Below, one piece after another: positions 18,350-62,480 of a stretch of DNA of 64,000 nt (position 1 is the first letter of the stretch; every line of letters starts with the position of its first letter). This DNA is from Pseudomonadota bacterium (GTDB lineage: Bacteria > Pseudomonadota > Gammaproteobacteria > Burkholderiales > Sulfuricellaceae), in assembly GCA_040752115.1 (NCBI GenBank), contig JBFMFB010000003.1, forward strand, positions 39,266 through 103,265, read 5' to 3'. The translations under genes and the position numbers were made by a program. The notes under the pieces are model-generated. The model did no database searches. It was not told where the DNA came from and was given only the letters and a program-made list of their open reading frames with translations.

Positions 18350-18383
18350 CGGGCAGACACCGGCAATCCGGCTCGTCTGCCCG
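18350..18383 (-). promoter_or_regulatory. Intercistronic hairpin between nosR and nosD
   Basis: CGGGCAGAC (18350-18358) pairs with GTCTGCCCG (18375-18383). The 16-nt loop contains CCGG..CCGG. No U-tract follows. Confidence 0.4.
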
Positions 18384-18414
18384 ACATGATTTCTCCTGCC
18401 CCGTGTGTTTTCGC

Positions 18415-20577
18415 TTACTTGATTTCCTTCAGCGGAATAAAGTAACCGTTTCCGTCAATGGGCGTAAGCGGGAGCCCGGCTCTCTGCCGGCTTCTCCGCT
18501 CCGTGGACAGCGGCGGGCAGGCGTGATCGTCATAATACAGTATCATGCAGTCGAGGCACAGGAGGCATTCGCGCTGGTCGATCTTGCCCTTGTTGTCGAT
18601 GGCAAGCGATCCGCAGCCATGCGCGCAGGCATGGCAGGGATTTCCGCATTCTGCCTTCCGTTTCAACCCAAAAAACCGGAATGTGGAAGGAATGGCGAGG
18701 CCGGCCCCGAGCGGGCACAGATACTTGCAGAACGGGCGCTCCATCAGGAGCGAAAGCCCGAACACCACAAACCAGAACAGCGCAAACGGCCAGGACCGGT
18801 TCAGCACGCCAACCAGGAAGGTGGTTTTGAACGGCTCCACTTCGGCCATTTTTTCCGCGAGCCCCATCGAATAGAAGGAAACCACCACCAGCGTCGCAAA
18901 AACGGCATATTTGACCCATTTGAGCTTGTCGTGAAGCGGTTTCGGCAATCTGAACTGAAAGCGCTTCAGACCCAATTTCCCGGCAATCTTGTAAGCGAGT
19001 TCGGTCATGGAGCCATAAGGACACAGCCAACCGCAGAACAGGCCACGGCCCCAGACAAACAGGGTGATGATGATGAACCACCAGAAAATGAAGATGAAAG
19101 GATCGGACAGGAACAGCTCCCACTTCCACTGCGTCAGCGAATGGAACCAGGTCATCACGTGCGTGATGCTGGGCTGCGCCATGGCATAAAAGCCGACAAA
19201 CCCGACGGAAATCGCCCAGATCAGATACTTGGGAATGTTCACCCAGCGCTTGTCCTTATGATTGGCGCGGCGCACGAATTGATAGCGCAACGCGGCGTAG
19301 GATGCGGCCGCCGAAATCAGCAACAGTACGAAAGCGACGATCTCCCATTTCTTGTCCTTCCACACGCGCAACCAGATCGGATCGGGACGTTCGTATTTCG
19401 GCCTCCCCCCTTCCAGATATCGCGCCGGCAACCAGTATTCCTGCTCGAAGTTGGCAAAAGTCTTGGCGCCGGTTTCCCTGTCGATCTTGTTGCCCAGGAA
19501 GGCGAGACTCCAGGGGTAGGCTGCGCTGAAATTGGCGCTGCGCAAGATGAAAAGCCCGGATTCCTTGTATTGCGGCGCGCCGGCAGCGAGCAGCGCGTAC
19601 AGATTCCGGTAGTCGGTGTCGCGGAAGGTAAACGAATCCGCCAATTGCTTGATCTGGATCCGGTCGTAAATCCCCCCGCGCACGAAGCCCGAACCTTTGA
19701 ACGACGCCGCGCCATTGGCGATGATGAAAATGACATGTTCGTTCGGTTTGAGATCGGCCATCAGGCGCTGGTAGGCATCGTCGCCGAGGATGCTGCGGCC
19801 GATGCTGGGGGCGTTGAGGTAGCCGAAGTACATGTCGATATACGGCTGCCCCGTGTCCGGCAACCCGACTTCCCTCGGCTGAACGGTAAGCCGCTGGACG
19901 CCGCCCTCTTTAACCAGCGCGTCCCAGTCAAGGGTTTCGGAGATGTTCGCGAATTTCGCCTGGGGCTTGGGGGTGGACTTGATGATGCCCACCTGCTTGC
20001 CAATCTCGGAAGCACAACGAGAAACGACCTGGTTTTCGGCGATGACGGTCACGGTCGCGCCGCTAATGGCGTCAAGCGGCACATACTGATCCGCGCTGCT
20101 GACCTTTCCAAGCTCGAACCGGCTGCCGGCGAATTTCCCGACATACTGCTTGATGTAATCCATCAGCTTGCTTTCCGGGATCCCGACCAGCAAGATCGGC
20201 TCGCTGTGCTTGAGAATCCGCACACCGGTGATGATGCCTTTGGCATCCATCCCGATCAGGGTCACCATAGGCTTGCCGGAGTATGCGGGAATATCCACGA
20301 TATCGGTGGAAAGGAAAACGTAGCCCAGCAGTTTCCTCTGCCCTCCCTCGGTCTTGTAACCCTCCACATACGGCGGCTGCCCTTTGCGCGGCGAAAAACT
20401 GTCCGCACCTGGCAACACATCCTTGCAGGCGACGTAGGCGCACATGTTGGCATCTGTATAGAGCTTTTCGGGCAACTGCGCTTCGTAGGAAGTGGCGTAG
20501 CTGTTCGCGCCCGGCAAAAAAGCCAGCAATACGAGAATCAGGCGAAAGGCAAGTGTCATCATCGTTGACCTGTGCAT
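18415..20577 (-). CDS. nosR: NosR, membrane-bound FMN-binding / iron-sulfur protein required for NosZ activity
   Basis: 720 aa. N-terminal periplasmic FMN-binding domain (SGATVT), multiple TM segments, CX3CP motifs (CGWLCPYG, CKYLCPLG) and C-terminal Cys clusters. The start could also be ATG 20562 or 20559. Confidence 0.92.
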   Translation of the reverse strand: MHRSTMMTLAFRLILVLLAFLPGANSYATSYEAQLPEKLYTDANMCAYVACKDVLPGADSFSPRKGQPPYVEGYKTEGGQRKLLGYVFLSTDIVDIPAYSGKPMVTLIGMDAKGIITGVRILKHSEPILLVGIPESKLMDYIKQYVGKFAGSRFELGKVSSADQYVPLDAISGATVTVIAENQVVSRCASEIGKQVGIIKSTPKPQAKFANISETLDWDALVKEGGVQRLTVQPREVGLPDTGQPYIDMYFGYLNAPSIGRSILGDDAYQRLMADLKPNEHVIFIIANGAASFKGSGFVRGGIYDRIQIKQLADSFTFRDTDYRNLYALLAAGAPQYKESGLFILRSANFSAAYPWSLAFLGNKIDRETGAKTFANFEQEYWLPARYLEGGRPKYERPDPIWLRVWKDKKWEIVAFVLLLISAAASYAALRYQFVRRANHKDKRWVNIPKYLIWAISVGFVGFYAMAQPSITHVMTWFHSLTQWKWELFLSDPFIFIFWWFIIITLFVWGRGLFCGWLCPYGSMTELAYKIAGKLGLKRFQFRLPKPLHDKLKWVKYAVFATLVVVSFYSMGLAEKMAEVEPFKTTFLVGVLNRSWPFALFWFVVFGLSLLMERPFCKYLCPLGAGLAIPSTFRFFGLKRKAECGNPCHACAHGCGSLAIDNKGKIDQRECLLCLDCMILYYDDHACPPLSTERRSRQRAGLPLTPIDGNGYFIPLKEIK

Positions 20578-20618
20578 GACAAAAAAAGAAATTTAAGCGT
20601 ATTAGAATGCACTAATCA

Positions 20619-20632
20619 TTGATCTGCGTCAA
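20619..20632. promoter_or_regulatory. FNR/DNR/NNR-type box upstream of nosR
   Basis: TTGATCTGCGTCAA matches TTGAT-N4-ATCAA in 9 of 10 specified positions. Located 42-55 nt upstream of the first nosR ATG. Confidence 0.65.
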
Positions 20633-20720
20633 TAAACAATAACCTTTCGGAAATCCGCAACGGTAATGAGCATGGTAGGCGAGATGTATTTTTAGGTGAG
20701 GAAACCCACCCAAGAAAAGG

Positions 20721-20752
20721 ACAAACAAAAAACGGGAGGGCGAACCCTCCCG
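20721..20752 (-). terminator. Intrinsic terminator of nosZ
   Basis: On the minus strand, CGGGAGGG-TTCG-CCCTCCCG is followed by TTTTTTGTTTGT. It starts 24 nt after the nosZ stop. Confidence 0.85.
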
Positions 20753-20775
20753 CAAATCCCGCTCGCAACTAATGC

Positions 20776-22743
20776 TTACTTCTTGACGAACATCCGGCTG
20801 CGCATTTCCAAATGCAGCGCATGGCAGAAGTGGGTGCAATAGATCCAGAACATACCCGGTTTGTCGGCCTTGAAGGTAACGGACTTCGTTTCCTGCGGAT
20901 TGACGATGAAGTTGACGTTATAGTTCTCGATGCCGAAGCCGTGCGCCAGATCTTCCACCTTGTCGTGGTTGGTCAGGGTGATGGTCACTTCGTCACCGAG
21001 CTTCACTTCGAAATCGCGCATGCTGTACGCGGGAGCAACGGAGGTGAGGTAAACGAAAACCTTGTTGCCCTTGCGCTCGATGCGGCTGTCCTTCGGATCC
21101 TTGACCGCATTGGGGTACTCATCCATGGTGGCGACCTGACGGGTCTTGATCCGGTCGCGGCGCACGATGATGGCGTCATGCGGTTCCGGCCACGCGGTGT
21201 GGTCGTGCAGGAGCTTCATCTTGTCGCCGCTGATGTCGATCAACTGCTCGGTCTCGACGTGCAGCGGGCCAACCGGCAGGAAACGGTCCTTGGAGAACTT
21301 GTTGCCGGAGTTGAAGTATTTGCCGTCGGCTTCCTTGGTTTCGCCCATGGAGGTATAGCCATGGCCGGGCTGGTAGTGAACGTCGAGGCGGTCCAGCACC
21401 ACCTTGGCGTTCTTATCGCCCTTGAATTGGGCGATCGCCGCCGCCACGTTCCATTTGACGATCTGGCTGTCGAGGAACAGGGTGGTGTAGGCATTGCCCT
21501 TGTTGTCGAAGCCGGTGTGCAACGGCCCCAGACCGATTTCCGGCTCGCCCACCACGGCATCGCGCGGCTCTTTCAGGCCGCCGTCGAACCACTTGTTCAC
21601 CAGATCGAGTTCGATCACGGTGGCGGTCGGGGACAGCTTGCCGGAGCAAACGAAATACTTGCCGTCCGGGCTGGCGTTGATGCCGTGCGGGTTCTTCGGA
21701 ACCGGCACGTAGCAGGTCAACGCGGTCTTGGGATCCTTGTTGGCTTCCTTGGTGCCATCCACTACCGGAACCTTGTTGTTGCCGATGGTGAACGACTTGC
21801 CGGCCTTGATCGCCGCCTCGATGCGCGCCACGTTGAAAAATACAGCCGAATCGCGCTCGGCGGTCATCATGTCTTCGTACTTGACGCCCATTTCGGTGTT
21901 GTACTGGTTGGTCGCGACCAGTTTGCCGTCGTAGGAAGTCGCCACCAGATCGCAGTTGCCGTCGATCTTGACCTGCCACCGCACGGCCATGGTTTCGGCA
22001 TCGACGCAGGTAAACAGGGACGCGTACTTCTTGCCGTCAGTCAAATCGCGCCCGTCATTAGGCAGCGGCTGGGAAAACTCGGAGCCGCAGAACACGCGAG
22101 TGGTGTGATTGATCTTCTCGTCAACCGGGTCGCGCTTGTCGGGGAAAATCCCGTGGAAACCCTGGACATTCGGAATGTCGGTGATCTTGTCCACTTCCAT
22201 CAGATCGCCGCGGACCCGGGCCAGGCGGTTGTTCAGTTTGTCGTTCACCCAGAAATACTTGCCGTCGTAGGTGCCGTCGGTATAGGAGCCGTGCACGTGG
22301 TGGGTATCACCCGTAGTGTACTTGAGGCTGCCGTCCGCCTTGGTGCCAAGAATCTTCTTCGATTCGTTGGTGATTCCCCAGCCGGTCATGGGGTCGATGT
22401 TGAAGGTAGCAATCCGCTTGAGGGTGCGGCCGGAGGGCACGCCATAAATACGGACTTCGCCGGAATGGCCGCCGCTGGACATCATGTAATAATCATCCAG
22501 CTCGCCCGGCTTGACATCATGCTTGACCCCTCCCGGCGCTGCAGAAGCTGCCTTTTCCGCAGTCTTCTCTGGAGCTTTGGCGCCGCCAGCGGGAGCCGGT
22601 GCTTCCTCTTTTTTGCAGGATGCCAGCCCAACCGACAAGCCGGCACCCGCCAAGCCGGCGATGGCGGCGGTGTTCAGAAACTTGCGGCGACTCAGATCCT
22701 GCGGCGCTTCCACGGCGTCAATTTTTTGCTTCTCAGTGCCCAT
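20776..22743 (-). CDS. nosZ: Nitrous-oxide reductase NosZ (Tat signal, clade I-like)
   Basis: Start chosen at MGTEKQK (GGAGA upstream). SRRKFL twin-arginine motif. GELDDYY..SGGHSGE, DTHHVHGS and C-terminal CuA motif CTHFCHALHLEM. Confidence 0.95.
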   Translation of the reverse strand: MGTEKQKIDAVEAPQDLSRRKFLNTAAIAGLAGAGLSVGLASCKKEEAPAPAGGAKAPEKTAEKAASAAPGGVKHDVKPGELDDYYMMSSGGHSGEVRIYGVPSGRTLKRIATFNIDPMTGWGITNESKKILGTKADGSLKYTTGDTHHVHGSYTDGTYDGKYFWVNDKLNNRLARVRGDLMEVDKITDIPNVQGFHGIFPDKRDPVDEKINHTTRVFCGSEFSQPLPNDGRDLTDGKKYASLFTCVDAETMAVRWQVKIDGNCDLVATSYDGKLVATNQYNTEMGVKYEDMMTAERDSAVFFNVARIEAAIKAGKSFTIGNNKVPVVDGTKEANKDPKTALTCYVPVPKNPHGINASPDGKYFVCSGKLSPTATVIELDLVNKWFDGGLKEPRDAVVGEPEIGLGPLHTGFDNKGNAYTTLFLDSQIVKWNVAAAIAQFKGDKNAKVVLDRLDVHYQPGHGYTSMGETKEADGKYFNSGNKFSKDRFLPVGPLHVETEQLIDISGDKMKLLHDHTAWPEPHDAIIVRRDRIKTRQVATMDEYPNAVKDPKDSRIERKGNKVFVYLTSVAPAYSMRDFEVKLGDEVTITLTNHDKVEDLAHGFGIENYNVNFIVNPQETKSVTFKADKPGMFWIYCTHFCHALHLEMRSRMFVKK

Positions 22744-22879
22744 TTTTTTCTCCTTGAACAAACAAAAATTAACCTTCAAGAACCAAACTTGCCGCCGCGC
22801 AACTCCTCGAACCACGGCATTTTCGACATTCACACCCTTAATTCTTCGATGCGACGCTGCTGCCATGGTAAGTGATTAG

Positions 22880-39170: not shown

Positions 39171-39286
39171 CGGGTGCGTGCAAATTCATAGCGCAAGCCG
39201 GCGGGCCGGCACAACAAGGGATACCGGGCAAACCCCGCAGCCAGACAGCTACTCCTGCTGCCGGGAAGGCTCGCTAAAAAGCCCCC

Positions 39287-46548: not shown

Positions 46549-47238
46549 CTAGGGTTTTAATGAAAATTCGAGCATCTCCTCGCCCACCTCGATTACATCC
46601 CCGTTCTGCAAAAGATGAGGTTCGGTGCCGACCGAGCGGCCGTTCACGATGGGGTGCGAGTTCCCTTCGACATGGGTAATGAAATAACCGTGCGGGCGGC
46701 GGGCGATCATCGCCACTTGCGCGCCGGGCTTGCCGAACGTCGCCAGCGGTCGCTTGAGCTCGATTTCCCGCCCGGCATACGTTCCCTTGATCCTCTTCAC
46801 CGCCCCCAGGGGAAAATTGACGGTGGCCGCCCGCGCGGTCGAAGCCGCCGTTGCAATCCGGCCGGCCGCGCTGCCCTCCGCTATCGCGCCTTCGCCCCCC
46901 GCCAGCGCCGGGATCATCATGGTGCGATCGAAATCCATGCCAGACATCGCTTTCTGGTTGACATACTTCAGCTGGTAACGGCTGACCTGGATCACGTCGC
47001 CATTCTGGAGGATGCGCCGGGTAGTGCGTTCGCCGTTCACCAGCGTGCCGTTGGTGCTGGCATTGTCTTCCAGTATCTGATCGTTGCCGACGGTAGTAAC
47101 CACGGCGTGCTCCTTGCTCACGCCCGCGTCGTCGATCTGGATATCGTTACTCGGCTTGCGGCCGATGGTGAAGCGATCCTTGTCCAGGAAGTAATTCCCC
47201 AGCACCGCACCATCCAGGCTCAAAATCAGTTTTGCCAT
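46549..47238 (-). CDS. Dual FHA-domain protein, copy A
   Basis: N-terminal canonical FHA (FTIGR...VSKEHA...STNGT). C-terminal FHA-like domain lacks the S-x-x-H signature (FGKPGAQVAMIARR...NG...GDVIEV). Confidence 0.85.
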   Translation of the reverse strand: MAKLILSLDGAVLGNYFLDKDRFTIGRKPSNDIQIDDAGVSKEHAVVTTVGNDQILEDNASTNGTLVNGERTTRRILQNGDVIQVSRYQLKYVNQKAMSGMDFDRTMMIPALAGGEGAIAEGSAAGRIATAASTARAATVNFPLGAVKRIKGTYAGREIELKRPLATFGKPGAQVAMIARRPHGYFITHVEGNSHPIVNGRSVGTEPHLLQNGDVIEVGEEMLEFSLKP

Positions 47239-47254
47239 GCTCCTACCCAGCCCT

Positions 47255-48091
47255 CTATTTCATCCATCCGAACAAGCTGCCGAACAGCCCGCGCGACTCG
47301 GCAGGAAACGGCTTCAGCACTTTGACCAATACGACCGAAACATTGTCATGGCCGCCGTTGTCGTTTGCCATCGCCACCAACTGCTTCGCAGCCAGCGGAA
47401 GATTGGCTTGGAGCGCACTCATGGCCAGCTCGATATCGGCATCGTCCACCATGTCGTTCAGCCCGTCCGAGCAAAGGAGATACATATCGCCCGGCTGCAC
47501 GCCTTCCTCGCGCACCTCCGGATCGAGTGCCGCATCAACGCCGAGCGCACAGGTAATGAGATTGCGGTTGTGGGAAATCTTGGCATCGTCGGAGGAAATC
47601 ATGCCCAGCTCGACCTGCTCCCGCAGCAGTGAATGGTCTTGTGTCAGTTGCACAAGCTGGTTCTGGCGCAACCGATAGAGACGAGAGTCGCCGCTGTGCA
47701 CCATGATCAGGCGGTTGTTGCAAAACAGCGCCAGCGCCAGTGTGGTTCCCATCCCGCGGTATTGCGGATTGGCTTCGGCCGCTTTCAAGATGGCCTGGTT
47801 CGCATGCATCACTGCTTTTCTGACGACATCGGATTCGGCAGAGCGCCCGCTTGCCGGACCCGGTTCGCCCGGCTTCAAGCCGCGCAGCGTCTGTCGCAAT
47901 TCGTTCACGATCATGGTCGTCGCCATGCCGCTCGCCACGTCGCCGGCCTTGTACCCACCCATGCCGTCGGCAAGCACGAACAGGCCGAGCGACGCATCCG
48001 TGGCAATGCTGTCCTCATTGAACGACCGCACCAGCCCGGCATCGGTCAGGGCGGCGACTTCCAGGGCGTTGCGTAAGGTCATGCTTTCCAT
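47255..48091 (-). CDS. PP2C-family Ser/Thr phosphatase, copy A
   Basis: TDAGLVRSFNEDS, VLADGMGG and LCSDGL motifs. Confidence 0.9.
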   Translation of the reverse strand: MESMTLRNALEVAALTDAGLVRSFNEDSIATDASLGLFVLADGMGGYKAGDVASGMATTMIVNELRQTLRGLKPGEPGPASGRSAESDVVRKAVMHANQAILKAAEANPQYRGMGTTLALALFCNNRLIMVHSGDSRLYRLRQNQLVQLTQDHSLLREQVELGMISSDDAKISHNRNLITCALGVDAALDPEVREEGVQPGDMYLLCSDGLNDMVDDADIELAMSALQANLPLAAKQLVAMANDNGGHDNVSVVLVKVLKPFPAESRGLFGSLFGWMK

Positions 48092-48280
48092 CCCTCCGGC
48101 GAGCGTACCGGCGTGGCTGTTGATTTACCGCGCATTCTCTCACCACCCCAAGCTCGCAGGCAAGCATGAGGCAGCGCCTGGAAGCCCGCTGCAGCCAGCC
48201 TGTCTTGACATGCTGGCGTGAAAAAACTACTGTTACAGCCCGTCCGTCCCGGATATTCGCCACCACTTGAGCCGCTTTCC

Positions 48281-49711
48281 ATGGCAATCGAAAAATTAGG
48301 CCGCTATGAAATTACCGCCGAACTCGGCCAGGGCGCCATGGGCGTGGTGTACCAGGCCGCCGATCCTCTCCTGGACCGCACCGTGGCGATCAAGACCATC
48401 AACCTCGACTTGTCCAGGGACGAGCTCGAGGATTTCGAAAGGCGCTTCTACCGGGAGGCAAAATCCGCCGGCCGGCTCAACCATCCCAACATCGTCACCA
48501 TCTACGATGTCGGCAAGGCCGACAACGTCGCCTACATGGCAATGGAATTCCTGCAAGGCGAAGAGCTGCGGGACGTGCTGGATGCGAGCGGCCCCCTGCC
48601 GATCGACAAAATTGCCGACATCGCAACCCAGGTCGCGGAAGGCCTGGCTTTCGCACACGAGCACGGCGTCGTGCATCGCGACATCAAGCCCACCAACATC
48701 ATGATCCTGCGCAACGGGCTCGCCAAGATCACGGATTTCGGCATCGCTTTGATGCCTTCGGCTTCGAGAACGATGGTGGGGATGGTGCTGGGCTCCCCCA
48801 AATACATGTCGCCGGAACAGGTCGTGGGGCAGGAGGTGGATGGCCGCTCGGACATTTTTTCGTTAGGCGTGGTGCTGTACGAGATGCTAGCGGGTGTGCC
48901 GCCCTTCACCGGGGAAAACATCAGCGCCATCATGTATCGCATCCTCAACGAGATGCCGCTTGCGCCGAAAACGATCAACCCGGATATTCCGGAAGCCTTC
49001 AATTACATCGTTGCCAAGGCTCTGGCCAAGCATCCGGGCGACCGCTACCAAACCGCACGAGAAATGGCGCATGATTTGCGAAACTACAAAGCGCTCGAGG
49101 TACCGGATTCCATCTACCCCTCCGGCCCGGCGGGCAAGCTGAGAACGCTGGAAAGGCGGGCAAGACCCAGGCCCATTGAAGAAGAAACGGCTGTCTTGTC
49201 CAGTGGATCCGCCTCTCCGACACTGATTGACATGCTCGAAACGTGCGAGGAAGACGACCGCCCCCAGAACGTTGCAGCGGCAAGCCCCGCCCTGCCGCAA
49301 CCCAGCAAGAAGCGCATCGCGATCATGGCCGTGGCCGCAGCAGCGGGCATATTCCTCGCGGCCTCCCTGCTGTTGCGCAACAAGGGGGACACACCCGCCC
49401 CCGAGGCGGGAAAACCCGCGGTGGCTGCCGGCTCGCCGACATCCGCCGCAAAAACCGCTCCTGCCGAACCTGCGGCAAAGATCGCCAGCTTGCCGCCCGT
49501 GACCGAAGCCTCGCTGGTATTTGCGATCACCCCATGGGGCGAAATATTCGTTGACGGCAAGAGCCACGGCGTTTCACCCCCACTCAAGGATCTCAAGATT
49601 CCGGCGGGGAAACACACCATCGAAGTCAGGAATGCGTCATTTGCCCCCTATTCCGAAACGCTGGACATCAAGCCCGCAACAACGAAAAAGATCAAGCACA
49701 AATTCAAATAG
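48281..49711 (+). CDS. Hanks-type Ser/Thr protein kinase with TM segment and C-terminal PEGA-like domain
   Basis: Start chosen at MAIEKLGRY. GQGAMGVVY, VAIK, HRDIKPTN, DFG and SPEQ motifs. TM IAIMAVAAAAGIFLAASLLL. C-terminal ITPWGEIFVDGK... Confidence 0.92.
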   Translation: MAIEKLGRYEITAELGQGAMGVVYQAADPLLDRTVAIKTINLDLSRDELEDFERRFYREAKSAGRLNHPNIVTIYDVGKADNVAYMAMEFLQGEELRDVLDASGPLPIDKIADIATQVAEGLAFAHEHGVVHRDIKPTNIMILRNGLAKITDFGIALMPSASRTMVGMVLGSPKYMSPEQVVGQEVDGRSDIFSLGVVLYEMLAGVPPFTGENISAIMYRILNEMPLAPKTINPDIPEAFNYIVAKALAKHPGDRYQTAREMAHDLRNYKALEVPDSIYPSGPAGKLRTLERRARPRPIEEETAVLSSGSASPTLIDMLETCEEDDRPQNVAAASPALPQPSKKRIAIMAVAAAAGIFLAASLLLRNKGDTPAPEAGKPAVAAGSPTSAAKTAPAEPAAKIASLPPVTEASLVFAITPWGEIFVDGKSHGVSPPLKDLKIPAGKHTIEVRNASFAPYSETLDIKPATTKKIKHKFK

Positions 49712-49722
49712 GAAGTACCACG

Positions 49723-50244
49723 ATGAACCGCCGTCTTCGCCTGCTGCGCGCACTATTGCCGATGTTGCTGCTGGCCGCGGCCGCCTGCACGCATGCACCG
49801 GCCAAAAAGAGCCCGCCCGAGAAGCCCCAGCCAAAAAAAATGGAAGAAGCACCCGCCAGAAAACCCGAAGAACCCGCTCCAAAAGCGGAGCCGGATGCCG
49901 GCAAGCAGCCGCCTGGCGCTGCGCGCAAGGCGGAACAGGAATTCATCTGGGGCAAGAACAACTACGAAGACGGGGATTACAAAAGCGCTGCCAAGAATTT
50001 TCAGAACGCACTGGATCTGGGGCTAGCCTCGAAGAACGACCAGGCCACGGCGCACAAATACCTGGCCTTCATCAGCTGTACGTCGCAGCAAAAAAAACAG
50101 TGCCGGGCGGAATTCAGGAAGGCGCTGGAGCTGAATCCGAAATTTCAACTGGAAACGGCGGAGGCAGGCCATCCCATCTGGGGGCCGGTATTCCGGGAAG
50201 TCAAGGCGGAAATGGCCAAGACGAAAAAGCCGCAGGCGAAGTAG
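49723..50244 (+). CDS. Probable lipoprotein with Pro/Lys/Glu-rich linker and TPR-like C-terminal domain
   Basis: Signal peptide ending LLAAAAC. Lies 11 nt after the kinase stop. C-terminal AHKYLAFISC...C..EF..ALELNP...GHPIWGPVF. Confidence 0.75.
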   Translation: MNRRLRLLRALLPMLLLAAAACTHAPAKKSPPEKPQPKKMEEAPARKPEEPAPKAEPDAGKQPPGAARKAEQEFIWGKNNYEDGDYKSAAKNFQNALDLGLASKNDQATAHKYLAFISCTSQQKKQCRAEFRKALELNPKFQLETAEAGHPIWGPVFREVKAEMAKTKKPQAK

Positions 50245-50247
50245 CGC

Positions 50248-50976
50248 TTATTTCAGGAAAAATCCCAGGCTTGTTCCTGCCACTTCGATGATGTCGCCAT
50301 CCCTGAGGGGAGCAGGAGGAACGCCAGCCGGTATGCCGTTGACAAGCGGGAGCTCCGTGCCCTCCACAAAGCTGAAGTAATACCCTCCCCCCCGACGGCT
50401 AATGGCGGCAACTTGAACCCCGGGCTTGCCCAGCGTTGTTATCGGCTTTGTCAACTCCAACGATCTTCCGCTTCCCGGACCGATCAGTATCTGGATCGCG
50501 CCGGTCCGGGTGGGTGCGGTTACCGCTTCCGGGACGGGTTTTACCGCCTCCGTGGGGAGCTGGCCGAGCATGGTGGTAAACGGCTGCAGTTCCGTCACAT
50601 CCTGCATCTCGGTCGTTTCCCGCGCGGCCGGAGCCGCCGGCGCGGCGCGAAAATCCCGCACAGTATCGTCGGGCGCGTTTTGCGGCTTTGCTTCCTGCGA
50701 GAACACCAGCACATGCCTCGCGATCCTGATTTCATCCCCGTCCCGCAGCAAGCATTTCTTGACAGGCTTGCGGTTGACCCGGGTGCCGTTGGTACTGTCC
50801 AGGTCTTCCAGAAAAAAATCGTTGCCGATAGCGATGATCGCCGCATGATCGCCGCTCACCGAGGAATCGCTGAGCCGGATGTCGTTGTGCGCCTTGCGGC
50901 CGATGGTAATGCGCTCCCGGTCGAGCAGATATTCCGCCGTTATGCCATTGGCATTGCGTATCAGCACTTTTGACAT
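50248..50976 (-). CDS. Dual FHA-domain protein, copy B
   Basis: Same architecture as 46549..47238: ITIGR...VSGDHA...STNGT, then LGKPGVQVAAISRR...NG...GDIIEV. Confidence 0.85.
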   Translation of the reverse strand: MSKVLIRNANGITAEYLLDRERITIGRKAHNDIRLSDSSVSGDHAAIIAIGNDFFLEDLDSTNGTRVNRKPVKKCLLRDGDEIRIARHVLVFSQEAKPQNAPDDTVRDFRAAPAAPAARETTEMQDVTELQPFTTMLGQLPTEAVKPVPEAVTAPTRTGAIQILIGPGSGRSLELTKPITTLGKPGVQVAAISRRGGGYYFSFVEGTELPLVNGIPAGVPPAPLRDGDIIEVAGTSLGFFLK

Positions 50977-50990
50977 GACCGCCCCTTCGG

Positions 50991-51821
50991 TTAAGTCCGG
51001 CCCCCGGCGACGCCGGCACCCCTCGCCCGGTTGGCCGGAAAAGGTTTGTCGATGCGCGCCAGGGCAACCGAAATATTGTCGTACCCGCCGCTTGCGTTCG
51101 CCTGCTGCACCAGACGCTCGGCCGCCGCCTGCAGATCGCCGGAATGCAGGCTCAAGGTGATGAGGAGTTCGCGCTCGCCCAACATCTCATATAGTCCGTC
51201 CGAGCATAACAGGTACACGTCCCCCGGCAGAACGGGCACCTCCCGGACATCCACCTCCGCCACAGGATCCACCCCCAGCGCACGCGTCAGCAAGCCCCGC
51301 TGAGGGGAATAGCGTGCCTCCTCCGGCGATAGCTCCCCTCTTCCGAGCTGCTCCTGCACCACTGTATGGTCTACCGTCAGTTGAGCAAGATCGCCGGCGC
51401 GCAGCCGATATACGCGCGAATCGCCGATGCTGGCGATTGTTGCCCGGTTGTCGCAAAAATAAACCAGCGCCACGGTGGTGCCCATCCCCTGATACTGCGG
51501 CTGCTGCTGTGCGGCCTCGAATATCTTCTGGTTTGCGCGGCTGACGGCGGTGTATGCCAGCAGGGGAGCGACAGGGCCGGGTGCGCCTTTTGCCGCGCGG
51601 AACGCCTGCATGATGGTGTCGACGGCCAAGGCACTGGCGATCTCGCCCCCCCGGCACCCTCCCATGCCGTCCGCCAACACCAGCAGCCCGGTTTTCTCGT
51701 CCCAGGCGAGACTGTCCTCATTATGCAGGCGAATCTGCCCGGTGTCGGTCGCACCGGCGAACTGCCAGGTATCAGCGGATTTCACGGCTTCGCTTATCGT
51801 TTCTTGAAAACATGGTCGCAT
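50991..51821 (-). CDS. PP2C-family Ser/Thr phosphatase, copy B
   Basis: Start chosen at MRPCFQ, which avoids overlap with radA. TDTGQIRLHNEDS, VLADGMGG and LCSDGL motifs. Confidence 0.88.
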   Translation of the reverse strand: MRPCFQETISEAVKSADTWQFAGATDTGQIRLHNEDSLAWDEKTGLLVLADGMGGCRGGEIASALAVDTIMQAFRAAKGAPGPVAPLLAYTAVSRANQKIFEAAQQQPQYQGMGTTVALVYFCDNRATIASIGDSRVYRLRAGDLAQLTVDHTVVQEQLGRGELSPEEARYSPQRGLLTRALGVDPVAEVDVREVPVLPGDVYLLCSDGLYEMLGERELLITLSLHSGDLQAAAERLVQQANASGGYDNISVALARIDKPFPANRARGAGVAGGRT

Positions 51822-58124: not shown

Positions 58125-59249
58125 ATGAAAATCGACATCTCGACAATCCGCCTGGCGCTTGCCCTCGCTTGCGCATACTGGCTGGCCGGCAGTGGTATCG
58201 CTCGCGCCGCAAACGACATCCATATTTCGACAAAGCAAGCCCAGGCGCTGGGCATCGAAACCACTTCGCTTGCGGCGCAATCCGGCAGCACCGGCAGCGG
58301 TTTGCCCGCCCAGGTCACGATCCCTCCCGCGCAAGTGCGAATTGTCAGCGCACCCCTGGCGGGCCTGCTGGAGAGCATCGCCGTGGCAACCAATCAATCG
58401 GTTCGAAGAGGCCAGGCGCTGGCGCGCATGCAAAGCACCGGCCTGATCGAGCTGCAACGCGAATATCTGCAGGCGGCAACCCAGACGCACTTGGCGCACG
58501 AAACCCTGAGCCGCGACGAAAAACTGTTCAAGGAAGGCATCATTGCGGAAAGCCGTTATCTGGCCGCCAAAGGCAACGCCGCTGCCGCAGCGGCCGCTTT
58601 CTCCGAACGGCGCCAGGCGCTGCGGCTGGCCGGAATGTCTGATGCCGCGATCGAGAAACTGCGGGCAAGCCACGCCATCAACAGCGTGCTGGAAATCGTT
58701 TCACCGCTGGATGGGGTGGTGTTGGAACAGATGGCGACACTCGGGCAGCGCGCCGAAGCCGCCACTCCGCTCTTCAAAATCGCAAACCTGACGCCATTAT
58801 GGCTCGAGATCCAGGTACCGATCTCTCAGGCCGCTGCGCTGCGGCCAGGCGCAGCGGTGGACGTTCCGGCCTATCAGGCGCGCGGAAAAATCCTGTCGGT
58901 CGGACGCAGCGTGCTCGACGCCAACCAGACCGTCCCGGTGCGGGCGGAAATCCGCGAGAACGCGGAAAACATGCGCCCCGGCCAGTTCGTGGAAGTCCTC
59001 ATCACGACCGCAACCGGCAACGACAAGCAGTGGCTGGTGCCCAACAGCGCCCTGATTCGCCATCAGGGTCAGGCGCATGTTTTCGTGCAAACCGCAAAAG
59101 GCTTCCGCGCCCAGCCGGTCAGACTGGTCAGCGAAATGAGCGGCGGCAGCATCATCGCCAGCGCCGGCTTGCGGGGCGACGAGCGCGTCGTGGTGCGCGG
59201 CGCGGCGGCTCTCAAGGCAGCCTGGCAGGGCGTGGGCGAGGGCGAATAG
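58125..59249 (+). CDS. RND efflux periplasmic adaptor (CzcB/CusB family)
   Basis: Signal peptide. Biotinyl-lipoyl-like and beta-barrel segments (RIVSAPLAGLL, VSPLDGVV). Immediately upstream of the CzcA-type pump. Confidence 0.88.
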   Translation: MKIDISTIRLALALACAYWLAGSGIARAANDIHISTKQAQALGIETTSLAAQSGSTGSGLPAQVTIPPAQVRIVSAPLAGLLESIAVATNQSVRRGQALARMQSTGLIELQREYLQAATQTHLAHETLSRDEKLFKEGIIAESRYLAAKGNAAAAAAAFSERRQALRLAGMSDAAIEKLRASHAINSVLEIVSPLDGVVLEQMATLGQRAEAATPLFKIANLTPLWLEIQVPISQAAALRPGAAVDVPAYQARGKILSVGRSVLDANQTVPVRAEIRENAENMRPGQFVEVLITTATGNDKQWLVPNSALIRHQGQAHVFVQTAKGFRAQPVRLVSEMSGGSIIASAGLRGDERVVVRGAAALKAAWQGVGEGE

Positions 59250-59396: not shown

Positions 59397-62300
59397 ATGT
59401 TGGCGCGCATCGTCGAATTTGCCCTCACCCAGCGCCTGCTGGTGCTACTCGCCACCCTGCTGCTGGTCGGCGCGGGCGCCTACGCCTTCAGGAATCTGCC
59501 GATCGACGCCTTTCCCGACGTTTCCTCCACCCAGGTCAAAATCATCCTCAAGGCCCCCGGCATGACGCCGGAGGAAGTCGAGGCGCGCATCGCCGCGCCG
59601 GTCGAAGTCGAAATGCTCGGCATCCCCAACAAGAAGATACTGCGCTCGGTTTCCAAGTACGCGCTGACCGACATCACCATCGACTTCGAAGAAGGAACGG
59701 ATATCTACTGGGCGCGCAACCAGGTGGCCGAGCGCCTCAACAACATCGCCAAGGACCTGCCGTCCGGCATCAGCGGCGGCCTTGCCCCGATCACCACGCC
59801 GCTGGGCGAAATGCTGATGTTCACGATCGAGGGCGGCAGCCTGTCGCTGATGGAAAGGCGCAGCCTGCTCGACTGGGTGATCCGGCCGGCCCTGCGCACC
59901 CTGCCCGGCGTGGCGGACGTCAACTCCCTGGGGGGGCTGGCGCGCAGCTTCGAGGTGGTGCCGGACAATACCGCACTCGATGCGCGCGGCATCGCGCTGG
60001 AGCAGTTGCGAAAAGCGCTGGAAACCAACAATCGCAACGACGGCGCCGGCCGCCTGGGCGACGGCGAAGAAACCCTGCTGGTGCGCAGCGAAGGGCGGAT
60101 CAAGACCCTGGACGACGTGCGCAACATCGTGATCGCCAGCCGCGAAGGCAAGCCGGTCAGGGTAGGCGATATCGCCGCGGTGCGGATCGGCAGTCTGACG
60201 CGCTACGGCGCGGTGACCAAGGACGGCCGGGCCGAAGCAGTGGAAGGATTGGTGCTCGGTCTCAGGGGCGCCAATGCGCAGCAGGTGGTGGAAGGCGTGC
60301 ACCGAAAACTGAAGGAATTGGCGCCCTCCCTGCCCAAGGGCGTGACCGCCCAGATCTTCTACGACCGCGGCAACCTGGTGGAGCGGGCGGTCGGCACGGT
60401 TTCCAAGGCACTGCTCGAAGCCATCGTGCTGGTGGTGATCCTGCTGCTGCTGTTCCTGGGCAACCTGCGCGCCGCGCTGGTGGTGGCGGCGACCCTGCCG
60501 CTGGCGGCGCTGGTCACTTTCATCCTGATGCGGCAGTTCGGCATGTCGGCCAACCTGATGAGCCTGGGCGGCCTGGCGATCGCCATCGGTATGCTGGTGG
60601 ATGCCGCCGTGGTCGTGGTGGAAAACATCGTGTCACACCTTGCGCACGACACCAACTCCGCCAGGAAATTGCCGCATCTGCACATCATGTACAAGGCGGT
60701 GCGCGAAGTATCCGCACCAGTGCTGTCGGGCATCGTGATCATCATCGTGGTGTTCCTGCCGCTGCTCACCCTGCAGGGACTGGAGGGCAAGCTGTTCATC
60801 CCGGTAGCGCTCACCATCGTGTTCGCGCTGGGCGGCTCCCTGTTGCTGTCTCTGACCGTCATCCCGGTGTTGGCCTCATTCCTCCTGAAAAAAGCGCAGC
60901 ATGGCGATCCCTGGCTGGTGCGCAAGGCGATGGCCGCTTACGTTCCCGCCCTGTCCTGGTCTCTCGCGCACGGCCGCACAGTGATCGCCGCCGCGCTGGT
61001 AGCCATGGGGCTGACAGCCGCGGTATATCCCATGATCGGCAAGACCTTCATGCCGGAAATGGACGAAGGCGACATCATCATCGGCGTGGAAAAGCTGCCC
61101 TCCATCGGACTGGAACAGTCCACCGCCCTGGACATGCGCCTGCAGCACGCGATCATGGAGCGCGTTCCCGAGGTGAAGGGGGTGGTGGCACGTGTCGGCT
61201 CGGACGAGCTGGGGCTGGACCCGATGGGGCTCAACCAGACCGACACCTTCCTGGTGCTGAAGCCGCGCGACCAGTGGCGCAAGCCCGACAAGGAATGGCT
61301 GGTCGGAGAGCTGCGCAAGGTGCTGGCGGATTTCCCCGGCGCTTCCTACAGCTTTACCCAGCCGATCGACATGCGCGTGTCCGAAATGCTCACCGGCGTA
61401 CGCGGCGACGTAGCGGTCAAGGTGTACGGCCCGGATCTGCCCACCCTCAACCAGCTTGCCGCCCGGATCGAGGCCGCATTGAGAACCGTCAAAGGCAGCG
61501 AGGATGTCTACACGACGAAAAACGAAGGCGTGCAATACCTCAGGCTGGAGGTTGACCGGCTTGCCGCAGGCCGTCTCGGCTTCCCGGTGGACGAGATCGA
61601 AAACATCCTGCGCGCGCAGCTGGAAGGGGTTGTCACGGGCGTCGTACAGGAAGGCAACCGCCGCACCCCCCTGCTGCTGCGTGGCGACGACGCCCTGCGC
61701 GCCTCGCCGTCGCGCTTTGCCGCGCTGCGTCTTACCTTGCCCGATGGCCAGAGCGTGCCGCTGTCCGCGGTGGCCAGGCTGGCGCGGGTGGACGGCCCGG
61801 TCAAGATCGACCGCGAAAACGCCCAGCGCTACGTGGTCGTCCGCGCCAACGTGCGTGGACGCGACCTGGTCAGCTTCGTGGAAGAGGCGAAACAGACAGT
61901 GGCAAAGCAGGTGCCGCTGGCAGCCGACTACTCCACGGTATGGGGCGGACAGTTCGAAAACCAGCAGCGCGCTGCGGCGCGGCTTGCGGTGGTGGTGCCG
62001 ATCGCACTGGGTCTGATTTTCCTGCTGCTGTTTTCCACCTTCGGCTCGGTGCGACAGGCGGTGCTGGTGTTCACCAATATCCCGTTCGCCATGATCGGCG
62101 GCGTCATGGCGTTATGGATTTCGGGTGAGTATCTGTCCGTGCCTGCGTCGGTCGGCTTCATCGCCCTGCTCGGCATCGCCGTGCTCAATGGCGTGGTAAT
62201 GGTGAGCTACTTCAACCAGCTGCGCGCCCAGGGCGTGGCGCTGGCCGATGTGGTGGTGGAAGGCGCGAAACGGCGGCTGCGCCCGGTGCTGATGACAGCG

Positions 62301-62480
62301 AGCATCGCCGCCTTCGGCCTGGTACCGCTGCTGTTCGCCACCGGCCCCGGCTCGGAAATCCAGAAACCGCTTGCGATCGTGGTAATCGGTGGGCTGGTGA
62401 CCTCGACGCTGCTGACCCTGATCCTGCTGCCGCTGCTGTACAAGCGCTACGGTTTTAGCGCTAAGGAGACAAGAGCATGA
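59397..62480 (+). CDS. CusA/CzcA-family heavy-metal RND efflux pump
   Basis: 1027 aa. N-terminus MLARIVEFALTQRLLVLL...IDAFPDVSSTQV is typical of the HME-RND family. 12-TM layout. Confidence 0.93.
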   Translation: MLARIVEFALTQRLLVLLATLLLVGAGAYAFRNLPIDAFPDVSSTQVKIILKAPGMTPEEVEARIAAPVEVEMLGIPNKKILRSVSKYALTDITIDFEEGTDIYWARNQVAERLNNIAKDLPSGISGGLAPITTPLGEMLMFTIEGGSLSLMERRSLLDWVIRPALRTLPGVADVNSLGGLARSFEVVPDNTALDARGIALEQLRKALETNNRNDGAGRLGDGEETLLVRSEGRIKTLDDVRNIVIASREGKPVRVGDIAAVRIGSLTRYGAVTKDGRAEAVEGLVLGLRGANAQQVVEGVHRKLKELAPSLPKGVTAQIFYDRGNLVERAVGTVSKALLEAIVLVVILLLLFLGNLRAALVVAATLPLAALVTFILMRQFGMSANLMSLGGLAIAIGMLVDAAVVVVENIVSHLAHDTNSARKLPHLHIMYKAVREVSAPVLSGIVIIIVVFLPLLTLQGLEGKLFIPVALTIVFALGGSLLLSLTVIPVLASFLLKKAQHGDPWLVRKAMAAYVPALSWSLAHGRTVIAAALVAMGLTAAVYPMIGKTFMPEMDEGDIIIGVEKLPSIGLEQSTALDMRLQHAIMERVPEVKGVVARVGSDELGLDPMGLNQTDTFLVLKPRDQWRKPDKEWLVGELRKVLADFPGASYSFTQPIDMRVSEMLTGVRGDVAVKVYGPDLPTLNQLAARIEAALRTVKGSEDVYTTKNEGVQYLRLEVDRLAAGRLGFPVDEIENILRAQLEGVVTGVVQEGNRRTPLLLRGDDALRASPSRFAALRLTLPDGQSVPLSAVARLARVDGPVKIDRENAQRYVVVRANVRGRDLVSFVEEAKQTVAKQVPLAADYSTVWGGQFENQQRAAARLAVVVPIALGLIFLLLFSTFGSVRQAVLVFTNIPFAMIGGVMALWISGEYLSVPASVGFIALLGIAVLNGVVMVSYFNQLRAQGVALADVVVEGAKRRLRPVLMTASIAAFGLVPLLFATGPGSEIQKPLAIVVIGGLVTSTLLTLILLPLLYKRYGFSAKETRA

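Follow-up and report, generated by a model that had tools for sequence, protein, structure and literature searches.

Here, we analysed a 64-kb window, i.e. the whole stretch from position 39,266 to 103,265 of contig JBFMFB010000003.1 (assembly GCA_040752115.1, Sulfuricellaceae), and describe a block of six genes in it that encodes a membrane Ser/Thr kinase, a TssQ-family lipoprotein, two PP2C phosphatases and two dual-FHA proteins. The gene coordinates are based on the open reading frame (ORF) map of the window and its translations. An earlier note on this DNA, made from its letters, had described six genes in this order with spacers of 16 and 14 nucleotides (nt), and all of them lie where it had placed them. 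The features are given below in window positions, and each PP2C/FHA pair is referred to as an arm.

46549..47238, minus strand: FHA-A, dual-FHA adaptor of 229 amino acids (aa); Pfam FHA 85.9 bits
47255..48091, minus strand: PP2C-A, Stp1/IreP-type PP2C Ser/Thr phosphatase of 278 aa, 16 nt upstream of FHA-A
48092..48280, no strand: divergent intergenic region between PP2C-A and the kinase gene, 189 nt; presumed bidirectional promoter region
48281..49711, plus strand: Hanks-type Ser/Thr kinase, 476 aa from the likely ATG at 48281; the ORF is open from a GTG at 48218
49723..50244, plus strand: TssQ-family lipoprotein of 173 aa; NF038027 114 bits
50248..50976, minus strand: FHA-B, 242 aa, paralogous to FHA-A and likewise a dual-FHA protein
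50991..51821, minus strand: PP2C-B, 276 aa, paralog of PP2C-A; NF033484 234.8 bits
51850..53247, minus strand: radA (context), co-oriented with arm B and immediately upstream of it

Both arms lie on the minus strand and are thus direct copies, not the mirror images of which the earlier note had spoken. Arm A is arranged head-to-head (divergent) with the kinase operon and arm B tail-to-tail (convergent), with 3 nt between the stop codons of FHA-B and of the lipoprotein gene. The genes within each arm are separated by 16 nt (arm A) and 14 nt (arm B), and 28 nt lie between radA and PP2C-B. A promoter scan found no consensus sigma-70 site in the 189-nt gap between PP2C-A and the kinase gene, so that a promoter role of this gap is presumed. 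The promoter and terminator scan of the whole block yielded fewer matches than shuffled sequence and nothing informative, and the base composition over the six genes is not unusual.

The six proteins and the two paralogous arms

Profile hidden Markov model searches, which had been proposed for all six proteins, assigned them to the FHA, PP2C, Pkinase plus PEGA and TPR/TssQ families. The lipoprotein matches the NCBIfam model NF038027, 'TssQ family T6SS-associated lipoprotein' (T6SS, type VI secretion system), with 114 bits over residues 67-163 at a cut-off of 65. Its lipobox cysteine, Cys22 (nt 49786-49788), follows the residues LAAAA and precedes a Pro/Lys/Glu-rich tether and a single TPR-like unit of about 95 aa (residues 67-163, nt 49921-50211; TPR_2 32.9 bits), where other members of the family have two or three units. 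C119, C127 and the motif G149-H-P-x-W-G-P are invariant in the TssQ family alignment; the window protein reads GHPIWGP, and the TPR-like lipoprotein that the earlier note had recognized is borne out in all these features. A PDB sequence search with the lipoprotein unit returned generic TPR matches only, and an exact-sequence look-up of the window lipoprotein, as well as of the TssQ of Trinickia fusca, gave no match. Members named TssQ by NCBI come from Burkholderia, Paraburkholderia, Trinickia, Caballeronia, Ralstonia, Variovorax, Pigmentiphaga and Andreprevotia. 'TssQ' is also used for a component of the Bacteroidota T6SSiii, which shares the name with this family.

The kinase scores 195.6 bits against Pkinase, with the domain at about residues 9-264 and its catalytic motifs VAIK, HRDIKPTN and DFG intact. 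Its sole hydrophobic helix is a transmembrane (TM) helix at residues 346-365 (nt 49316-49375), preceded by KKR, and beyond it follow a predicted periplasmic Pro/Ala-rich linker and a C-terminal PEGA-like domain (nt ~49541-49705; PF08308, 22.5 bits). This agrees with the earlier description of a kinase with one TM helix and a PEGA-like domain. A literature search on PEGA kinases found nothing relevant. The kinase (48281-49711) also matches NF047741, many PADLOC PD-T4-6 models (best 372.8 bits) and mad6. The PD-T4-6 models evidently cover ordinary Hanks kinases, which carries a risk of false 'defence system' calls.

Both phosphatases are assigned to the PP2C_2 / Stp1-type PP2C family: PP2C-A scores 231 bits and PP2C-B 234.8 bits on NF033484 (cut-off 230), and PP2C-A 57.3 bits on PF13672. 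The catalytic and metal-binding motifs DGMGG, GDSR, SDG and DN are intact.

In FHA-A, an N-terminal FHA domain (residues 1-96, nt 46951-47238) is joined by a linker (residues 97-140) to a C-terminal domain (residues 141-229, nt 46552-46818). The N-terminal domains match Pfam PF00498 with 85.9 bits in FHA-A and 76.9 bits in FHA-B. G26, R27, S41, H44 and N63 are invariant in an alignment of 42 sequences, i.e. the residues that bind phosphothreonine (pThr) are intact, and a Foldseek comparison of the FHA-A domain with the FHA domain of GarA/OdhI gave E 8e-9. AlphaFold2 (AF2) predicts full-length FHA-A as two beta-sandwiches with a disordered linker at residues 97-140 (predicted local distance difference test, pLDDT, 77; linker below 50).

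The C-terminal domain is, as judged by profile comparison and predicted structure, a degenerate FHA fold without the pThr-binding residues. In hhalign, the profile of its 89 residues aligns with that of the N-terminal FHA domain with a probability of 93.7 % (E 2e-7, 69 columns), and the positions of the pThr-binding R27, S41 and N63 are not conserved. Pfam FHA barely misses it in FHA-A (19.9 bits, under the cut-off of 20.7) and does not match it in FHA-B. Modelled alone, the domain reaches an AF2 pLDDT of 89.6, and its top 50 Foldseek matches are all FHA or FHA-like, with TM-scores of 0.78-0.82 for OdhI/GarA. These matches also include the pThr-blind YscD/PscD domains (4d9v, 4a0e, 6uid), and Pfam Yop-YscD_cpl weakly matches the FHA proteins. 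A PDB sequence search with the C-terminal domain yielded nothing significant. The canonical FHA domain followed by a degenerate second one, as described in the earlier note, is hence found consistently by hhalign, AF2 and Foldseek. A profile search with the C-terminal domain in 1.84 billion representative proteins gave 1777 matches with E<=0.001, of which 1033 reach E<=1e-10; in nearly all listed matches the domain sits at the extreme C-terminus, and most are 200-300 aa long with a weaker second match upstream. Given these 1033 representatives and the C-terminal placement, the dual-FHA architecture defines a large family that is, as far as we found, unnamed.

The linker of FHA-A contains the motif D-x-D-[KR]-T106-M-M-I (residues 102-106, nt 46921-46935; Thr codon 46921-46923), of which T106 is invariant in the 42-sequence alignment; the counterpart in FHA-B is DDT. 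Many FHA domains bind Thr with Ile at position +3, and T106 is a candidate phospho-acceptor and FHA ligand. The solved structures closest to both FHA domains of the window proteins are those of the actinobacterial GarA and OdhI, which are likewise small FHA proteins whose phospho-acceptor Thr motif (here a candidate) sits in a flexible stretch that adjoins the FHA domain, an arrangement that permits an intramolecular switch between pThr and FHA. However, GarA and OdhI contain just one FHA domain, carry their ETTS motif at the N-terminus and bind metabolic enzymes, whereas the window proteins have a second, pThr-blind FHA domain and their candidate Thr in the inter-domain linker. The YscD/PscD/PrgH domains of type III secretion systems share with the C-terminal domain an FHA fold devoid of pThr-binding residues and serve as protein-protein interaction modules. 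They reside in membrane ring proteins of the injectisome, whereas the domain described here forms the C-terminus of a small soluble protein.

The two arms are paralogous. FHA-A and FHA-B are 37 % identical end to end (E 1e-46), and PP2C-A and PP2C-B 46 % (E 5e-78). Across related genomes, identities amount to 48-54 % within a type and 34-41 % between the A and B types. In a neighbour-joining tree of the FHA proteins, the B-type sequences form one clade and the A-type sequences another, which takes in all copies from one-arm cassettes; in the PP2C tree, A is monophyletic and B a basal grade. Based on the higher identity within than between types and the separate tree groups, the duplication is old relative to the sampled lineages, in line with what the earlier note had gathered from the divergence of the pairs.

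Homology with type VI secretion modules and distribution of the sensor core

The component list had reminded the author of the earlier note of the Thr phosphorylation pathway of type VI secretion. The TssQ model is passed by the window lipoprotein, members of its family are encoded within T6SS clusters, and the PEGA-like C-terminus of the kinase is common to a T6SS kinase; the resemblance thus reflects true homology. We called and profile-scanned the ORFs of Burkholderia replicons from PLSDB. The T6SS cluster of Burkholderia arboris reads hcp-tssC-tssB-tssA-[Ser/Thr kinase]-tssM-tssL-tssK-tssJ, followed by tssQ-tagH (TssQ 125 bits), and a Variovorax cluster reads tssJ, followed by tssQ-fha-PP2C, with the kinase beyond tssM. 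In both of these complete clusters, tssQ lies directly upstream of fha/tagH. The PEGA-like C-terminus of the window kinase is 38 % identical over 69 residues to that of the Burkholderia cluster kinase (E 1e-12), which is likewise PEGA-like, while the kinase domains are 27-28 % identical to those of the Burkholderia and Variovorax T6SS kinases.

In Pseudomonas aeruginosa, the H1-T6SS is controlled by the TagQRST-PpkA-Fha1-PppA pathway, in which an outer-membrane lipoprotein acts ahead of a membrane Hanks kinase, followed by an FHA substrate and a PP2C that resets the system (PMC13584744). According to a 2025 study of Acidovorax citrulli, the gene for the outer-membrane protein TssW is located between ppkA and fha; TssW interacts with PpkA at its periplasmic domain and sets the position of the T6SS, and PpkA phosphorylates Fha, which promotes Fha polymerisation (PMC12607579). 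The window block follows the same logic as the P. aeruginosa pathway, with an outer-membrane lipoprotein ahead of the kinase in the signalling order, an FHA protein and a PP2C. However, it contains no TagR, TagS or TagT gene and is bounded directly by an SDR gene and radA. The periplasmic domain of P. aeruginosa PpkA is of the vWA type, not PEGA. Post-translational control of T6SS through PpkA, Fha and PppA has been investigated in detail. To our knowledge, P. aeruginosa and, as of 2025, A. citrulli are the only species in which the sensor that feeds this control is understood. The same parts, i.e. an inner-membrane Hanks kinase with a C-terminal domain in the periplasm, a small outer-membrane protein or lipoprotein whose gene adjoins that of the kinase or of the FHA protein, an FHA protein and a PP2C, are found in the TssW-PpkA-Fha-PppA module of A. 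citrulli (PMC12607579) and in the tssQ-fha(-PP2C) genes and cluster kinases of Burkholderia and Variovorax. With the Burkholderia and Variovorax genes, the window block shares a lipoprotein in NF038027 and, in Burkholderia, the PEGA-like domain of the kinase. Thus, the T6SS resemblance stands, but the TagQ type named in the earlier note, which is that of P. aeruginosa, does not appear to be the best counterpart; the Burkholderiales-type PpkA-TssW/TssQ-Fha-PppA module appears to fit better (PMC12607579).

The block also departs from these T6SS modules: no T6SS gene lies nearby, the kinase domains are distant and the PP2C/FHA pair is present twice. The window FHA proteins are about 230 aa long and end in a degenerate FHA domain, compared with 476-688 aa and a T6SS_FHA_C domain in T6SS Fha/TagH proteins. 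T6SS_FHA_C (PF20232) does not match FHA-A or FHA-B, as opposed to Burkholderia TagH (162 bits) and Variovorax Fha (positive), and TIGR03354 reaches 46.7 and 55.2 bits in FHA-A and FHA-B against a cut-off of 120.25, over the FHA part only. In tblastn with Burkholderia queries, neither the 64-kb window nor the related loci L001-L087 (most with ±10 kb) gave a match to Hcp, TssA/B/C/J/K/M or TagH, and one TssL match among the 87 loci is a generic OmpA-like domain. The absence of T6SS core genes, noted earlier for the window, thus extends to these related loci, and the lipoprotein lies outside the setting 'in or beside a T6SS cluster' that NF038027 describes. Literature searches on T6SS in Sulfuricella and on orphan FHA/PP2C/lipoprotein cassettes found nothing relevant.

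Is the six-gene block a common arrangement? A scan with the lipoprotein unit over one genome per species gave more than 576 confirmed stretches, and we classified the best 80 by mapping the window proteins onto them. Such loci occur in at least 80 species; most of the best 80 come from Betaproteobacteria, namely Sulfuricella, Sulfurirhabdus, Sulfuriferula, Thiobacillus, Gallionellaceae, Casimicrobiaceae, Uliginosibacterium and numerous metagenome-assembled genomes (MAGs) of Burkholderiales/Nitrosomonadales, and a few from MAGs labelled Deltaproteobacteria. They fall into the following classes (arrows, direction of transcription).

Four-gene: FHA<-PP2C, then kinase(PEGA)->lipoprotein; 21 loci and 2 probable
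Six-gene: the window arrangement, always between an SDR gene and radA; 6 loci and 5 cut contigs that show the B side
Five-gene: six-gene form minus PP2C-B, with FHA-B directly after radA; 7 loci
Triad: cyclase-like/TM/PEGA protein encoded separately -> lipoprotein -> kinase lacking PEGA; FHA and PP2C absent; 24 loci
Kinase-PEGA and lipoprotein only: 3 loci
Incomplete: 12 loci

The four-gene cassette is the commonest form with FHA and PP2C genes, and the triad is about as common. An enrichment analysis of neighbour families found no conserved neighbours of the four-gene cassettes beyond the four genes. The six-gene block recurs, as the co-occurrence check raised in the earlier note was to ask, and is also carried by Sulfuricella denitrificans and Thiobacter aerophilum. 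The two arms, which the earlier note had read as possible parallel outputs, are present here, but they are not the general design: where FHA and PP2C genes occur, a single arm is commonest, and the second arm of the window is an elaboration confined to one lineage. Nor is the block an 'island', as it had been called: in several families it occupies a syntenic place on the chromosome, with radA on one side and the SDR gene on the other.

Only the PEGA domain, the lipoprotein and the kinase persist across the arrangement classes, so that, by sequence comparison, the constant core consists of a PEGA domain, a TssQ-type lipoprotein and a Hanks kinase. Of 72 loci in which this could be tested, 71 have the end of a PEGA-like coding region no more than 500 nt ahead of the lipoprotein gene; in the remaining one, the two overlap by 2 nt. 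This linkage holds whether PEGA is part of the kinase or of a separate cyclase-like protein, which argues for a partnership between PEGA domain and lipoprotein.

Several loci deserve separate mention. In the triad at L005 (8884-11895), a protein with a cyclase-like domain (22.1 bits), a TM helix and PEGA precedes a two-unit lipoprotein and a TM-anchored Hanks kinase. The triad is also found in L007, L016, L017, L019, L028 and about 18 more loci, with a C-terminal TM anchor as the only further part of the kinase; the PEGA protein scores 25.1 bits on PEGA, its weak domain is adenylate/guanylate-cyclase-like, and L005 and one other triad locus adjoin metG. The five-gene variant occurs in Sulfuricella-like MAGs (L011, L013, L014, L022, L024, L037, L071), with about 77 nt between radA and FHA-B in L011; as PP2C-B is cleanly absent and FHA-B kept, one PP2C may serve both FHA proteins. 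Two loci of the same MAG, MFD02159.bin.2.77 (L010, 6829-10451; L033, 6768-10451), have about 3.6 kb in common, mostly 93 % identical, that correspond exactly to the four-gene cassette between unrelated flanks; this points to either duplication or transfer of the cassette, or two strains in one bin. In a Sulfuricella denitrificans MAG (L001, 6733-7191), a cytochrome c' gene (Cytochrom_C_2) lies between FHA-B and the lipoprotein gene. TssQ-type lipoprotein/PEGA loci also occur in MAGs labelled Deltaproteobacteria or Syntrophus (L018, L027, L029, L035, L044, L061); these bins may carry a wrong label, or else the family is not confined to Betaproteobacteria.

A proposed envelope-sensing switch and its alternatives

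We consider it probable that the block, as an 'orphan' form of the Thr phosphorylation module known from Burkholderiales-type T6SS, works independently of T6SS as an envelope-sensing switch. Gene content, domains, intact motifs, homology with the T6SS module, the lack of T6SS genes nearby and the PEGA-lipoprotein linkage were computed here; 'envelope-sensing switch' is our interpretation by analogy with the T6SS modules. Based on this homology and on the strict PEGA-lipoprotein linkage, we propose the following mechanism. The lipoprotein, tethered to the outer membrane by its long Pro/Lys/Glu linker, would offer its TPR-like unit, stabilised by a disulfide, to the PEGA-like domain that the inner-membrane kinase exposes in the periplasm. 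A change in envelope state would alter this contact and thereby switch or relocate the kinase, which would phosphorylate Thr residues on itself and/or in the D-x-D-K/R-T-M-M-I linker of the FHA proteins. FHA-A and FHA-B could then bind the resulting pThr through their canonical N-terminal domains, while the degenerate C-terminal FHA domain, in place of T6SS_FHA_C, may pass the signal to an unlinked target or drive oligomerisation, and both PP2Cs would reset the switch by reversing the phosphorylation. We infer the lipoprotein-PEGA contact, the envelope signal, Thr106 as acceptor and the output through the C-terminal domain.

Several points weigh against this proposal. The PEGA match of the kinase is marginal (cut-off 20.8 bits), and the Variovorax T6SS kinase has no PEGA-like domain, so that PEGA and TssQ are not paired in every case. 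Among the B-type proteins, the Thr motif of the linker is less regular. The T6SS search covers the window and the locus flanks, and the orphan cassettes are known from sequence alone. Finally, membership of TssW in the TssQ family is suggested by gene position and one common species: the TssW gene takes the position of tssQ, and Trinickia fusca, listed in that study (PMC12607579), has an NCBI-named TssQ. The TssW primers give MASKT...LPGKKAP, which none of 348 retrieved proteins match.

A different explanation would be that the cassette is a regulatory module that acts in trans on a T6SS encoded elsewhere in the genome. The T6SS-associated family of the lipoprotein, with its relatives inside T6SS clusters, and the periplasmic domain shared with the Burkholderia T6SS kinase would fit such a role, but FHA-A and FHA-B lack T6SS_FHA_C and stay at 46-55 bits on TIGR03354 against 120, neither the window nor the related loci contain a T6SS core gene, and all three T6SS-type loci that we inspected carry the module within the cluster; we regard this explanation as unlikely. 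Arm B could also belong to a radA operon and tie Thr phosphorylation to DNA repair or recombination, with arm A left to serve the envelope sensor. The earlier note had raised co-transcription of radA and PP2C-B, and this is supported: a scan found no terminator-like site in the 28-nt gap, and the co-oriented junction of radA and arm B measures 0-62 nt in two relatives and 0-77 nt across the loci seen. Wherever visible, the B-type FHA gene lies co-oriented directly downstream of radA, even in loci that lack PP2C-B, and some triad loci (L041, L059, L067) abut radA as well. However, the B-type loci all come from one syntenic lineage (dnaB-alr-radA...SDR-hpnEDC), so that the linkage may be an inherited position only; four-gene cassettes occur without radA next to them, the architecture of FHA-B is that of FHA-A, and no DNA-repair domain is present. 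A functional tie of arm B to DNA repair thus seems quite improbable to us.

Regulation of the adjacent hopanoid genes (hpnCDE/SDR), i.e. a role in membrane lipid remodelling, is suggested by the conserved position of the SDR gene and hpnE/D/C beside the six- and five-gene loci. This adjacency is nevertheless limited to one syntenic lineage, the SDR/hpn genes lie on the opposite strand, convergent with arm A, and the four-gene and triad loci have no hpn neighbours, which makes such a role very unlikely. Finally, the PADLOC matches of the kinase, including mad6, and weak matches of both PP2Cs to PDC-M21C could be read as a PD-T4-6-type anti-phage defence kinase with accessory neighbours. These models cover the generic Hanks kinase fold, neither the FHA proteins nor the lipoprotein match PADLOC, the housekeeping neighbourhood is conserved across families without a composition anomaly, and a periplasmic sensor with an outer-membrane lipoprotein is ill-suited to sensing phage in the cytoplasm. 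In view of the generic models, the housekeeping synteny and the membrane topology, we rejected anti-phage defence as extremely doubtful.

The orphan switch may be one case of a broader principle. The sensor core is seen in at least four arrangements, namely with a T6SS Fha, with one dual-FHA protein and PP2C, with two dual-FHA proteins, and with a separate cyclase-like PEGA protein without FHA. We tentatively suggest, as a possibility to which we lend somewhat less than even weight, that Betaproteobacteria have an ancient and general sensor of envelope state, made up of the PEGA-domain sensor, the TssQ-type outer-membrane lipoprotein and the Hanks kinase, and that T6SS is only one of its several outputs. 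If so, the dual-FHA proteins would be a new class of phospho-dependent adaptors that link the status of the outer membrane to a cytoplasmic process not yet tied to Ser/Thr signalling in Gram-negative bacteria.

Every component family was already known, as was the T6SS-embedded version, which has recent experimental support, and the lipoprotein family had been named by NCBI. New are, as read from the sequences, a large T6SS-free clade of the module, dual-FHA adaptors with a degenerate second FHA domain, a sensor core re-wired in at least four ways and, in the window form, two paralogous output arms. A lipoprotein of the same family and a PEGA-type kinase thus also form a cassette that is complete in itself and has no T6SS gene in its vicinity, and the sensor module evidently functions beyond T6SS. 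Genome annotation pipelines will call such genes 'T6SS-associated' where no T6SS gene is near. The cassettes offer a simple four-gene system for lipoprotein/PEGA sensing and for the role of a pThr-blind FHA domain.

Neighbouring genes

The left-hand neighbour radA is conserved: it is 75-92 % identical and adjoins PP2C-B/FHA-B in every six- and five-gene locus, and the SDR gene and hpnE/D/C are the conserved right-hand neighbours in these loci. In Thiobacter aerophilum (L004, 14825-15388), hpnC and tig are separated by a fragment of a DDE_3 transposase, a small interruption of synteny that is conserved elsewhere. The other genes of the window have housekeeping or respiratory roles and comprise the thrC/hom region, nosZRDF, lon-clpX-clpP-tig, hpnCDE, a YciK-type SDR gene, alr, dnaB, ribosomal genes and czcA. 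The nos cluster at 15307-22866 on the minus strand consists of a clade I nosZ dependent on twin-arginine translocation (985 bits), nosR, nosD, an ABC ATPase gene (probable nosF) and a probable nosY, which makes the source organism a likely denitrifier. A heavy-metal efflux RND pump of the CusA/CzcA family (1069 bits) is encoded at 59397-62480 on the plus strand, with a probable membrane-fusion gene upstream at 58125-59249.

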